NCBI GenBank assembly: GCA_033549025.1 | Contig: JAWSUS010000007.1 | Location: 32,001-96,000, forward strand | Direction of reading: 5' to 3' | Length of the DNA: 64,000 nucleotides | From: Desulfuromonadales bacterium | GTDB lineage: Bacteria; Desulfobacterota; Desulfuromonadia; Desulfuromonadales; SZUA-540 | Shown here: piece after piece, positions 6,247-64,000 of the stretch | How positions within the stretch are numbered: position 1 is the stretch's first letter | How the letters are laid out: every line of letters starts with the position of its first letter | The notes under the pieces: generated by a model | Databases searched by the model: none | Told to the model about the DNA's origin: nothing | Seen by the model: the letters and a program-made list of their open reading frames with translations, nothing else | Made by a program: the position numbers and the translations under genes

Positions 6247-8700
6247 ATGCTAAAAAAGCTTCTGTCTATCCTGATTCTGCTCGTTTGCGTTTTATCGGCC
6301 CATGCCGAAGAGTCCACTCCTGAAGAGGAGTCCGCCGTCGTTTACCCGGGGGTGGCCGAGGTTGTGCCTTCTTTAGCCAGACTTCAGACGCAGACAACCA
6401 ATGCTCTCACCAAAACGCGTGATCTTGAAAATCTGTCGGACACGAAATCTCAGATCGAGCAGCTTCGCGTCAGGCAGGAGAAGCTTGGGCGCTGGATAAA
6501 AGAACAGGGCGATCCTGCCGGGTGGAATTACGACCGCTTGGCTGAAACGGTGTCCAAATTGACGGCACAAGAGGTCGAACTGGACAGGATAATGTCCGCC
6601 CTCGTCGAAAAAGTAGCGGAATTGGAGAAATTAAAAGAAGCATGGAAAGAGCGTCAGATTTATTGGCGGGATTGGCAGGATTCATTGACTTCTTCCGAAG
6701 CGAAGGTGGCGACGGAATCATTCAATAACGCCTCGGATCTCACGGCGGAAGTCCTTCAGGCCATTGAAAAGGCGATGCCAAGCCTGGTCGATCGGCAGAA
6801 AGAAGTGACCGCCCTGCAAGCGGCCAGCCGGGAAATGAGAACCGAAATCGAGTCCTACATGAAGGATTTTCGGCGGCAAACCTTCAGTAAAACAGGGGCC
6901 CCTTTTTATTCCCGCCAGTTTTATGCGGCTTTCAATGCTGACCTGCTCGATGCCGTGCTGGCTGGAGTGCACTCCGTGAAGGGGCAAGCCACGGGGTTTT
7001 GGCAGCGACAAGGCTGGGTTGCCCTTTTTCAGGCCATGCTGGCCCTGGGGTTGGCTGGCTTTATAAAGAGGTACAGGCGCTTGGCCGAGGTTACTCAGGA
7101 GTGGCACTTTATTCTTGACCACCCCTGGGCGACAGGAGTGTTCGTCTCCATCGTTTCTCTCGGTTTTCTTTACACCGATGTCCCGGGACCTTACCGCCTG
7201 GGGCTTTGGGCCTTGGCCGCCTTTTCCGCGGCGGTTCTGACGGCAGGCCTGCTTAAAAATCCCCGAAAAATTGCCATGGTTTACTCCGTGGCGATCCTTT
7301 CTGTTCTCTCAGTGGCCTTGCAGTTGATCTCCTTGCCCTCGCCGCTCTACCGGCTTTACCTGGCCACGATCGCCATGGTTGGCATTCCCTTCCTGCTGTT
7401 TATGGCCAAAGGCAATCAGAAGGTTCACAGCGGTCGGGTCAATGGCTTTACCTTGCTGCTTCGTCTGGGGGCGGGTGTCCTGCTGGTTTCTCTCGTCGCC
7501 CAGATTGGCGGTTTCAGTAATCTGGCTTCCCGTTTGATTGAGTCCAGCGTTGAGACCATTTTTCTCTACATTTTTACGACCATGAGCATTCGGCTGGGTC
7601 ATGGCGGAATCGATTTTCTCTTCAGTCGGCCCGCCTTCAGGACGAAACTTTTTTTCATCCAATTTGGCGTCGAGCTTCAAAACCGCCTGAAAGGGCTGGT
7701 AAAGGTCGCCTTCCTGGTCTTTGCCATCCTCTATTTGAGCCAGATCTGGGGCCTCTATGCGTCTGCCGGGCAGGCCGTGGATCAGATTCTGGGCTACAGT
7801 TTTACCCTCGGCGAAATCACGATTTCCGTCGAAATGATTTTGCTGGTGGCATTCACCGTTTATGTCTCCATTGTAGTCTCCTGGTTTTTAAAAGCTGTAC
7901 TTGAAGCGGAGATTTTCCCCAGAAAACACTACGATCGAGGGGTACGAGATGCTATCAAAAAATTGCTCCACTATTCTCTGGTTCTGCTCGGCTTTCTGTT
8001 GGCCCTTAGCATTGCGGGTATTGAACTGAAGAACCTGGCCGTTGTTCTTGGCGCCTTTGGTATCGGCATCGGTTTCGGTTTGCAGAATATTGTCAATAAT
8101 TTCGTCAGTGGCCTCATCCTGCTTTTTGAGCGACCGGTCAAGGTGGGTGACACTCTCGTTGTCGATGACGAGTGGGGGCTGGTCAAAAAGATCGGGTTAC
8201 GCTCGACCATTGTGGAAACCTATAACCGGGCCGAAATCATCGTCCCCAACTCGGACCTGATCTCCCAGAAGGTAACCAACTGGAGTCTTTCCACGCGGGT
8301 GGCGCGGGTGGTTCTCCCCGTGGGGGTAGCGTACGGAAGCCATGTTGAGAAAGTACTGAGCATTCTTGGGGAGGCAGCCAGGGCGAACCCGGATGTCCTG
8401 AGTGATCCTGAACCATCTCCCATTTTTACAGGATTCGGTGACAGCTCGCTTGACTTCGAACTCAGGGTCTGGGTCGAGGATGTCGGCCAGATGTTGGCGG
8501 TGAAAAGCTGGCTGGGCCAATATGTGGACAAACGTTTTCGTGAGGAGGGGGTGGAGATCCCCTTTCCGCAGAGAGATCTTCATGTACGATCCATCGACTC
8601 GGTGGTGCTGTCCAGCTTGAGAGAGAATACGCCGAGCCGTCAGGACGAAAAAAACCCGCAAGAAACTCCTGCCTCCGGGCAGGAGTCCTTGCGGGAGTGA
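6247..8700 (+). CDS. Large MscS-family mechanosensitive channel
   Basis: N-terminal coiled coil, many TM helices, GIGFGLQNIVNNFVSGLILLFERPVKVGD, EIPFPQRDLH. Confidence 0.9.
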   Translation: MLKKLLSILILLVCVLSAHAEESTPEEESAVVYPGVAEVVPSLARLQTQTTNALTKTRDLENLSDTKSQIEQLRVRQEKLGRWIKEQGDPAGWNYDRLAETVSKLTAQEVELDRIMSALVEKVAELEKLKEAWKERQIYWRDWQDSLTSSEAKVATESFNNASDLTAEVLQAIEKAMPSLVDRQKEVTALQAASREMRTEIESYMKDFRRQTFSKTGAPFYSRQFYAAFNADLLDAVLAGVHSVKGQATGFWQRQGWVALFQAMLALGLAGFIKRYRRLAEVTQEWHFILDHPWATGVFVSIVSLGFLYTDVPGPYRLGLWALAAFSAAVLTAGLLKNPRKIAMVYSVAILSVLSVALQLISLPSPLYRLYLATIAMVGIPFLLFMAKGNQKVHSGRVNGFTLLLRLGAGVLLVSLVAQIGGFSNLASRLIESSVETIFLYIFTTMSIRLGHGGIDFLFSRPAFRTKLFFIQFGVELQNRLKGLVKVAFLVFAILYLSQIWGLYASAGQAVDQILGYSFTLGEITISVEMILLVAFTVYVSIVVSWFLKAVLEAEIFPRKHYDRGVRDAIKKLLHYSLVLLGFLLALSIAGIELKNLAVVLGAFGIGIGFGLQNIVNNFVSGLILLFERPVKVGDTLVVDDEWGLVKKIGLRSTIVETYNRAEIIVPNSDLISQKVTNWSLSTRVARVVLPVGVAYGSHVEKVLSILGEAARANPDVLSDPEPSPIFTGFGDSSLDFELRVWVEDVGQMLAVKSWLGQYVDKRFREEGVEIPFPQRDLHVRSIDSVVLSSLRENTPSRQDEKNPQETPASGQESLRE

Positions 8701-62119: not shown

Positions 62120-63391
62120 ATGCTTGACATCAAATATCTGCGCGACAATCTGGACGAAGCCGAACGGCGTCTGGCCACCCGGGGCGGGGCTCTCGACCTT
62201 TCTGCCTTTCGGGGGCTCGATCAGCGGCGGCGCGAGCTTTTGGGGGAATCCGAATCGCTCAAGGCCGAAAAAAACAAGGTCTCCGCCCTTATCGGGCAGA
62301 CCAAAGATAAAAGTCAGGTTCAGACCGAGATCGCCCGCATGAAGGAGGTCTCCGCCCGCATCAAGACCCTCGATGACGAGCTCAAGGCCGTCGAGGAGCA
62401 GCTGCAGGGCCTGCTGATGACCGTTCCCAATATCCCTCACGAGAAATGCCCGGTCGGCGCCTCGGAGGACGACAACCGCGAAGTGCGCGTCTGGGGCTCC
62501 CGTCCCCAATTCGACTTTGCTCCCAAGCCGCACTGGGAAATCGGTGAGCAGCTCCGTATTCTCGACTTCGAGTGTGCCGGCAAGCTGACTGGGGCCCGTT
62601 TTGCCCTCTACCGGGGAGCCGGTGCCCGCCTGGAAAGAGCCCTGATCAACTTTATGCTCGACCTGCATACAACCCGCCATAAATATATTGAAATTTTGCC
62701 GCCCTTTATGGTAAATAGGGTCTCCATGACGGGGACAGGACAGCTCCCCAAGTTTGAAGACGATCTTTTTCATTTAGAAGACCCGGATTTTTTCCTCATC
62801 CCGACGGCCGAGGTTCCTGTAACCAATATCCATCGGGACGAGATTCTGGCGGCTGGTACGCTACCGGTCCTTTACACGGCTTATACGCCCTGCTTCCGCA
62901 AGGAAGCCGGATCCCATGGCAAGGATACGCGTGGCCTTATCCGCCAGCACCAGTTCAACAAAGTTGAGCTGGTCAAGTTTGTCCGGCCGGAGCAGTCCGA
63001 CGCTGAACTGGAAAGCCTGCTGGATAACGCCGAGGAGGTGCTCCGGCAATTGGGGCTTCCCTACAGAGTCGTGGATCTCTGTACGGGGGACATCGGCTTC
63101 TCCGCCGCCCGCACCTTCGACATCGAAGTCTGGCTGCCCGGACAGGATGCCTACAGGGAAATATCCTCCTGCTCCAACTTCCGCGATTTTCAGGCTCGCC
63201 GGGCCGGTATTCGTTTCCGGCGGGAAGAAGGAGAGCGGCCCGAATTCGTTCATACGCTGAATGGATCCGGACTGGCGGTAGGACGCACCCTGGTGGCGAT
63301 TCTCGAAAACTACCAGCAGGCCGACGGGTCGGTGCTGATCCCGGAAGTCCTCCGGCCCTACATGGGCGGCTTGGAGCGCATCGAAGCCTGA
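62120..63391 (+). CDS. serS: Serine--tRNA ligase
   Basis: [39 protein letters not shown]. Confidence 0.97.
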
Positions 63392-63403: not shown

Positions 63404-63469
63404 GGAGGAGTGGCCGAGTGGTTTAAGGCGGCGGTCTTGAAAACCGTTGTACGAAAGTACCGTGGGTTC
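63404..63469 (+). pseudogene. 5' fragment of tRNA-Ser(UGA), broken in the T-loop
   Basis: GGAGGAG acceptor 5' strand, D arm, anticodon TGA at 63438-63440, variable arm, GTGGG-TTC; the expected GAATCCCAC-CTCCTCC 3' half is absent. Confidence 0.85.
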
Positions 63470-63533
63470 TTATATCCGCCTCAGAACGCTGCACGTTTTA
63501 AAAACAATTGATAATTATTTTTATATAGAACTA

Positions 63534-63623
63534 GGTGGGCTGGCCGAGTGGTTGAAGGCGCTGGTCTTGAAAACCAGAAGCGATTAACGTCGCTCCGGGG
63601 TTCGAATCCCTGGCCCACCGCCA
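63534..63623 (+). tRNA. tRNA-Ser (anticodon UGA), complete
   Basis: GGTGGGC/GCCCACC acceptor stem, G discriminator plus CCA, TGA at 63568-63570, long variable arm, GGTTCGAATCC. Confidence 0.95.
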
Positions 63624-63633
63624 AAATAATAGT

Positions 63634-63674
63634 AAAAACGGGGACCTAGAGGATTCTGGGTCCCCGTTTTTTTT
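63634..63674 (+). terminator. Intrinsic terminator after tRNA-Ser
   Basis: AAAAACGGGGACCTAGA..TCTGGGTCCCCGTTTTTTTT. Confidence 0.85.
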
Positions 63675-63809
63675 GTCGTAACTCTCACATTCCCCTCTCC
63701 GCAAACCATAGTGCGCAGTAAAATAGCTGCGTCCTGTTGTGTTCCGCTAATCTTCCTATATACTGTCCCTCGAAAGTTACTGCGCTTTATTTCCTCGTCG
63801 GAGGGGTCT

Positions 63810-64000
63810 ATGAAAGCCGGCAGACGTTACAAGCACCTCGCACTGCTAAAAACGGCCAAGAACGGAAAACCAACGTTTGCGTTGCTGGCCGAAGATCAGG
63901 CCTTGTGTGACTTCTTCGATCATTGGGCATACCTGCTCGCCAAAAATAACAGCCCTAACACCGTCCGTGCCTACTCCTACGCAGTTGCAGATTTTCTCAA
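63810..64000 (+). CDS. Probable tyrosine recombinase/integrase, N-terminus only (runs off the window)
   Basis: GGAGG RBS; MKAGRRYKHL...LAKKYSPNTVRAYSYAVADFL resembles an integrase core-binding (SAM-like) domain. Confidence 0.6.
   Translation, partial: MKAGRRYKHLALLKTAKNGKPTFALLAEDQALCDFFDHWAYLLAKNNSPNTVRAYSYAVADFL

Follow-up and report, generated by a model that had tools for sequence, protein, structure and literature searches.

Why does a tRNA-Ser(UGA) gene break off inside its T loop and give way, 64 nt further on, to a second and complete gene with the same anticodon? The question arises at the right-hand edge of the window (the whole stretch of DNA analysed, 64,000 nt, G000:C7:32001-96000), whose source assembly, G000, is a draft of 78 contigs with a completeness rating of 100%. 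A preliminary description of this DNA had proposed that a mobile island destroyed the host gene and supplied a whole different tRNA in its place. We consider it likely (probability about 0.8) that a 15.7-kb island with two recombinases sits in the T loop of the only Ser(UGA) gene of this genome and carries a complete tRNA that would rescue the host by being read from the host transcript. The compensation principle is already known, from phages and from Gamma-Mobile-Trio (GMT) islands with protein genes; what is added here is footprint evidence, a family that spans three isotypes and a domestication series in Pseudomonas. Such a system would offer a concrete way in which a foreign gene takes the place of an essential core tRNA gene, the stages in between being still readable in genomes, and it bears on the evolution of tRNA gene sets and on the use of tRNA genes as vertical markers.

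The split tRNA gene and the borders of the island

The first tRNA-Ser(UGA) begins 13 nt past the stop codon of an ORF that we take, with the preliminary description, to be serS-like and ends with the letters GGGTTC, as that description had it (Table 1). Its sequence is the start of the intact gene in two island-free genomes of the same genus, G001 and G002, where the intact tRNA-Ser(UGA) is followed 52–54 nt on by a tRNA-Ser(GCU). The spacer, complete tRNA-Ser(UGA) and terminator that had been listed downstream were found in that order. The complete gene is the sole tRNA that ARAGORN reports in the 64-kb window and the only intact Ser(UGA) gene found in G000, and its body differs from that of the broken one. 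Because its anticodon is the same as the broken gene's, it is an isodecoder and not, as had been proposed, a different isoacceptor.

Table 1. Landmarks of the split tRNA gene, the island and its surroundings (window positions unless prefixed)
Feature	Position	Strand	Remark
serS-like host gene	62120..63391	+	ORF; conserved in relatives
Broken host tRNA-Ser(UGA), 5' 66 nt	63404..63469	+	T loop cut after TTC
Target 6-mer GGGTTC at attL	63464..63469	+	
Left terminal inverted repeat, TTATATCCGCCTCAG	63470..63484	+	12/15 identical to reverse complement of right end
Spacer, 64 nt	63470..63533	+	between broken tRNA and full tRNA
Element-borne complete tRNA-Ser(UGA)	63534..63623	+	ARAGORN
Intrinsic terminator-like hairpin, 17 pairs	63634..63679 (17-pair stem-loop 63634..63671)	+	between carried tRNA and intA
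Start of intA (GmtY-like tyrosine recombinase, 485 aa)	63810..64000	+	ATG at 63810; rest past window
Insert (whole island)	C7:95470-111139		15,670 bp
Right end of island	C7:111125-111139		inverted-repeat partner of left end
attR 6-mer GGGTTC	C7:111140-111145		
Displaced 3' end of host tRNA, GAATCCTACCTCCTCCGCCA	C7:111146-111165		51 nt ahead of tRNA-Ser(GCU)
CBASS-like E1-E2/JAB genes	L001:10882-14277		
Outward sigma-70-like site, TTGACA-18-TAGTAT	L001:17001-17030		inside right end
Type VI secretion-like cluster (presumed)	G000:C7:113547-139826		just past tRNA-Ser(CGA)

The displaced 3' half, which the preliminary description had predicted for the far end of the island, is there, one base off the guessed sequence and directly after a second GGGTTC. 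Both ends of the insert lie on one contig, and its GC content is 48% against 55–59% in the flanks. Among the 30 loci fetched, 2 of which stop at or before the gene, the split gene occurs at no locus besides G000's own.

A draft of 78 contigs might suggest an assembly error or a local tandem duplication; that explanation has next to no probability and is refuted by the recurrence of the layout in many genomes. A 14-locus search gave 13 Pseudomonas relatives of the island's integrase IntA at 43–49% identity (and one weak, unrelated match), and with G170 and G324, added later, 15 Pseudomonas genomes have a close IntA. A split host Ser(UGA), a full foreign Ser(UGA) and a terminator are present in 14 of the 15; the fifteenth, the metagenome-assembled genome G646, has no match to the tRNA pattern at all. 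The single contig, the GC contrast and the differing tRNA bodies likewise speak against an artefact.

The outward sigma-70-like site inside the right end could drive the tRNA-Ser(GCU) cluster that the island's terminator would sever from serS; such a site is no family trait, being present in 4 of 20 elements against 2.4 expected. Further along the contig the ORFs presumably form a type VI secretion-like cluster.

Target site, ends and recombinases of the family

Twenty elements have both ends paired (14 in Ser, 5 in CAU and 1 in Gly tRNA genes; G324 was left out, its right end not being found); three pairs have attL and attR on different contigs (G041, G203 and G645), and several spans of 60–150 kb may be composite. 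All 20 are inserted in the T loop of a Ser(UGA), CAU or Gly(CCC) tRNA gene, all begin with TTAT and close with ATAA (in part a consequence of the search design), and their terminal inverted repeats are imperfect (8–12 of 15 positions identical). In Pseudomonas the cut falls in the host tRNA-Ser(UGA) next to a gene that we take to be yccA-like, at G(A/G)GTTC^TTAT (the caret marks the cut), and the int operon may lie either way round relative to the tRNA cassette. Seven other Pseudomonas genomes have a distant IntA only (31–33%, ~30% identity); in the six examined, five elements split a CAU tRNA and one splits Gly(CCC), all at GGTTC^TTAT and all with a gene of matching anticodon on board. ARAGORN calls the CAU tRNA Met; we presume that it is Ile2. 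In two elements (L147:8809-9130, L148:~8325-8650) the anticodon loop of the carried CAU tRNA is interrupted: the insert is ~243 nt long (measured in L147), has G as its last base and resembles a group I intron, with scores below the Rfam gathering threshold.

The preliminary description held that the element is freed from target homology. Homology that would rebuild the gene is indeed absent; strict site specificity remains, with a GTTC core at the junctions of all 20 elements. The 6 bp at the left junction are the host gene's, while those at the right differ from them in 15 of 20 (9/14 Ser, 5/5 CAU, 1/1 Gly). Target duplication or a strict shared core would each give identity. In the available text of PMC10214605, SE and Tn554 show the same asymmetry, with the circle's 6-bp spacer ending up at attR; by analogy, the attR 6-mers of the island family would stem from the site that the element occupied before, carried over in a circular intermediate. 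The two 6-mers of G000 itself are identical, and the footprint is seen only in its relatives. This identity, found in 5 of 20 elements, would be expected if the island were of the ordinary lambda-like integrase type, its ends sharing a 6-bp core; tRNA-dependent lysogeny would then have a counterpart outside phages, and no footprint mechanism would be involved. Short cores are on record (PMC10865867, available text). We regard such an island as improbable, given the differing 6-mers of the other 15 elements, the inverted-repeat ends and the conservation of two recombinases with accessory genes.

Some attR 6-mers (CGGTTC, AGGTTC and TGGTTC; L241-L244, L248-L250) are absent from the Ser(UGA) genes of our 46-row tRNA tree, and CGGTTC and AGGTTC are present in CAU targets, which may point to earlier stays in different tRNA genes or in different hosts. 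One run over contigs of a related population returned joints only between tRNA look-alikes of other organisms. The spacer of the 14 Ser elements measures 51–53 or 61–64 nt, two groups that differ by roughly a turn of the helix. A TGCA ~22 nt in is conserved (window and 13 Pseudomonas elements), and the spacer may be a phased protein-binding site.

The ORF that had been called integrase-like proved to encode a tyrosine recombinase: IntA matches Pfam Phage_integrase (30 bits, cut-off 27.1), its family profile matches XerC/XerD-type structures, and R250, H381-x-x-R384 and Y424 are invariant in an alignment of 13 homologs. At the catalytic second-His position, residue 415, the G000 protein has Gln where the other 12 of 12 homologs have His, so that this copy may be impaired. 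The gene abuts intB (1125 aa) directly, and beyond it lie ORF3 (214 aa), ORF4 (159 aa, weakly VPA1267-like), a RecD2-like helicase gene (724 aa) and cargo. IntB keeps R614/H773/R776/Y807 in 14 aligned sequences. The G000 protein has no Pfam or NCBIfam match of its own; 3 of 14 homologs match the GmtZ model NF047926 (best E 1.8e-14), and its ESM Atlas neighbours partly carry PF13009, which is a lead only. A protein search gave 64 relatives of IntB, named hypothetical or integrase, from Pseudomonas, Tolumonas, Vibrio and Cocleimonas among others; a further distant IntB-like gene (E 6.6e-32) lies in L252 (G200:C1:1460491-1464678). Domain searches found no integrase match for ORF3 or ORF4 and no phage genes in the island. 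Two gene pairs make up the cargo: one is CBASS-like, consists of E1-E2 and JAB genes and neighbours an IS481, and the other is TcmP/DUF5131 (PADLOC PDC-M30-like). Upstream of the CBASS-like genes there is no cyclase-sized ORF, and the adjoining IS481 ORF looks frameshifted; the CBASS-like system is probably broken.

Which known class comes closest? The preliminary description had suggested a multi-integrase, GInt-like element; multi-recombinase it is, by its gene content it is no GInt, and GMT islands are nearest. Like these (bioRxiv 10.1101/2023.03.28.534373, available text), the island has a recombinase, a large integrase and a small gene in a row together with defence cargo. IntA is weakly GmtY-like (model NF040693: 21.6 bits for the window's IntA and 46.3 for that of L032, neither reaching the cut-off of 340), IntB homologs are GmtZ-like and ORF4 VPA1267-like, all with scores below cut-off. 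IntB is ~1125 aa long, and GmtX is lacking as the third gene (0 of 15 ORF3 homologs match at E<=1). With SE and Tn554 the family shares the imperfect terminal inverted repeats, the attR footprint, whose donor origin is inferred, and the catalytic residues of IntA and IntB, apart from the Gln of the window's IntA; against the SE order intA-tfp-intB-srap, the island has no Tfp-like gene between its recombinases, a likeness and a difference drawn from the description in PMC10214605 (available text). GInt/Tn6571 is also a multi-recombinase island with a variable attachment-site sequence; as described in the available text of PMC5385486, GInts have three integrase-like genes and ginD, whereas the island has two recombinases. 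To judge from genes and ends, the module functions in the manner of GMT and SE elements and fails strict membership of GMT, SE and GInt. The main texts of the GMT, SE (PMC10214605) and GInt (PMC5385486) papers make no mention of tRNA, although the GMT site list (Dataset S2) may include tRNA targets, and the available part of PMC10121019 has nothing on tRNA. A literature search on tRNA replacement by mobile elements and on xenologous tRNA gave nothing relevant among the papers listed; supplements and subscription journals may hold an earlier description.

Beyond Pseudomonas, the samples that we searched rarely contain the element family. Of 301 genomes from the phylum of G000, G000 alone has IntA, and of 390 scored genomes from the Pseudomonas class, G041 alone has it (one further genome unscored); plasmids and viral contigs gave no IntA or IntB match, and phage records no IntA match. 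An order-wide pattern search hit 1 of 201 genomes, G041 itself, a weak result in that the pattern required GGTTC and so missed GAGTTC sites. Two of 29 metagenome pattern matches are real, both beside IntA and with the same layout; the other 27 are chance. The E. coli genomes hold only the ordinary gene (80–90% identity, 5426/5426), and among the matches listed no phage tRNA with full cover exceeds 77% identity.

The carried tRNA as a probable substitute for the broken gene

The broken half joined to the left end of the island scores 29.7 bits, just at the Rfam threshold, and its T and acceptor stems cannot form. Because the ends are inverted repeats and the 6-mer is foreign, the T arm cannot be rebuilt. 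Under standard wobble rules UCA is read only by a UGA anticodon, and the break should therefore be lethal unless compensated; TCA is contained in 726 of 1173 long ORFs of G000 (a crude ORF scan). The carried gene always lies just inside the left end, and its anticodon equals that of the target in 20 of 20 elements of three isotypes (two interrupted by the intron-like insert). The best reading of so regular a match, whichever of the three isotypes is hit, is complementation. Could it be incidental cargo instead, kept for codon supply or anti-defence while the host survives the break by other means? The island does have defence-like cargo, and phage tRNAs have been proposed to protect against tRNA-cutting defences (PMC10865867, available text). 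We think this very improbable: the anticodon match is complete, the place inside the left end is fixed, and no other UGA decoder was found in G000.

As to expression, neither a sigma-70 consensus promoter nor a terminator was found in the spacer (63470-63533), and the serS-like gene is likely the source of the transcript that reads the downstream tRNA. In Pseudomonas the leader, counted from the -35 box, is 53–58 nt for element-type genes against 44–50 nt for host genes, and it shrinks to host length. The spacer, in which no consensus promoter was found, and the shrunken leader both fit read-through from the host promoter.

The route that we envisage starts with the insertion seen here, between TTC and GAAT of the T loop, by an element with TTAT...ATAA ends and no copy of the tRNA 3' end. 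An isotype-matched tRNA would complement the otherwise lethal break, being read from the host promoter and cut from a precursor that begins with the broken host half. The carried tRNA is in turn a target: its own T arm remakes the intact GGGTTC^GAATC, which accounts for nested insertions into an element-type gene such as those of L032 and L084. Finally, the island body could be lost and the left end could not, so that the host half would decay and the foreign tRNA become resident. This is how a recombinase without target homology may exploit an essential gene—it brings a spare and becomes hard to lose. Island finders that search for a duplicated tRNA 3' end would misplace the left border of such elements.

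The nearest precedent is tRNA-dependent lysogeny (Guerrero-Bustamante and Hatfull, 2024; PMC10865867), in whose available text cognate tRNAs of actinobacteriophages complement the broken host tRNA, as is also suggested for a Lactobacillus prophage. In both systems the host tRNA is not rebuilt at the junction and a matching tRNA is carried (here in 20 of 20 elements). The elements of the island family differ from those phages in being non-phage, with two recombinases, inverted-repeat ends and 6-mers that mismatch in 15 of 20; their tRNA lies 51–64 nt in from the end, preceded by the host promoter, and serves as a target in its own right. The available part of that paper reports no permanent takeover from the host gene. 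GMT islands, for their part, often carry a gene homologous to the disrupted one (bioRxiv 10.1101/2023.03.28.534373, available text).

Element-type serTGA genes across Pseudomonas

The carried tRNAs form a lineage of their own. In the 46-row tRNA tree, the element-borne genes, including the window's, fall on one side together with integrase-free Pseudomonas copies (100/100, support that is inflated, as the alignment has 87 columns with paired stems); these 20 rows, among them the window's carried tRNA, have the signature Y7:R66 and the 26 host-type rows R7:Y66. In an even sample of G041's genus, 74 of 301 Pseudomonas genomes match the element tRNA of L032. A close IntA is present in only 6 of the 301, 5 of them among the 74 (at most five candidates scored per genome), and 69 of the 74 thus have no close integrase match.

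We read the loci of 54 of the 74 and of 4 genomes outside the sample, 58 in all (L136, with no full tRNA, was left out). Twelve show a freshly split host gene. Eleven have a long degenerate leader, and in nine of these its resemblance to the host 5' half is significant (<=3 of 200 shuffles); a short leader is present at nine loci, one of them significant; and 26 share a conserved 75-nt leader, with a host remnant in none of the three tested. Of 40 chosen genomes, 38 have no Ser(UGA)-like match besides the element-type gene, the exceptions being a decayed remnant in G133 and a different gene on another contig in G284. None of 20 integrase-free genomes has an element body or host 3' half within ~20 kb downstream, and attR was not found in the complete genomes G164 and G129, so that it is the left end that ties the integrase-free loci to the element. 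The single Ser-TGA gene of P. fluorescens SBW25 (PMC7661048, supplement file 11) is the sequence found in L157, L158 and L172. According to the available text of that paper, tRNA-Ser(UGA) is essential in SBW25 by prediction, and all 39 tRNA types were detected as mature tRNAs; an element-type gene can thus work as a sole copy.

Do the neighbouring genes tell of one replacement or of several? Mapped onto a yccA tree, the element type takes 17 changes, 12 of them forced by strong branches, in a careful run with the labels of L140 and L143 uncorrected, and 16 changes, 7 forced, in a quick run with corrected labels (shuffled mean 39). Host-type rows were picked by similarity rank, for which reason the proportions on this tree are meaningless and the scatter is meaningful. 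One clade of 28 rows (one a duplicate; 100/99) is entirely element-type. L082 (G085) has the 75-nt leader on a yccA that groups outside the 75-nt clade, which suggests possible regional recombination.

Complementation might be real and its direction in Pseudomonas nonetheless partly reversed, the tRNA being native to, or recombined into, the 75-nt-leader clade, SBW25 type included, and captured from there by elements. Several observations fit capture: the 75-nt leader has no host-half remnant, the L082 pairing points to regional recombination, the broken resident gene is already element-type in the metagenome loci L049 and L068, and Vibrio and Ruegeria replicons hold tRNA-Ser genes 87–89% like that of L032, so that native sources exist. 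We nevertheless find it unlikely. The 28-row clade is nested among host-type lineages; the element tRNAs, among them that of the distant window host, show more diversity than do the genes of the clade; and capture leaves the 11 decayed loci, nine with a significant host half, unexplained. A TGC[AT][CT]-like motif also stands at the end of 18 of 26 75-nt leaders and of 13 of 32 in the remaining element-type set, against 0 of 58 in host-type genes, a weak point in that the motif was chosen post hoc.

Domestication is well supported for the decayed loci, and for the 75-nt clade and SBW25 it appears the better of the two readings. In many Pseudomonas genomes the island's copy likely became a permanent host gene after the island decayed. 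Taken as a whole, we lean towards the view that an unnamed, GMT-like superfamily inserts into the universal T loop of tRNA genes present in single copy, maintains a separate line of tRNAs that match by isotype and double as fresh landing pads, and acts as a ratchet. On this view it has displaced the essential serT across Pseudomonas many times and for good, in as many as about a quarter of the sampled species, and the SBW25 serTGA is a domesticated mobile-element gene.

At least 13 genomes with an element-type tRNA also hold duplicates of its 3' part (query 28/29-90), 2–70 kb off or on another contig; the replaced gene seems to serve conventional islands as a place of attachment.
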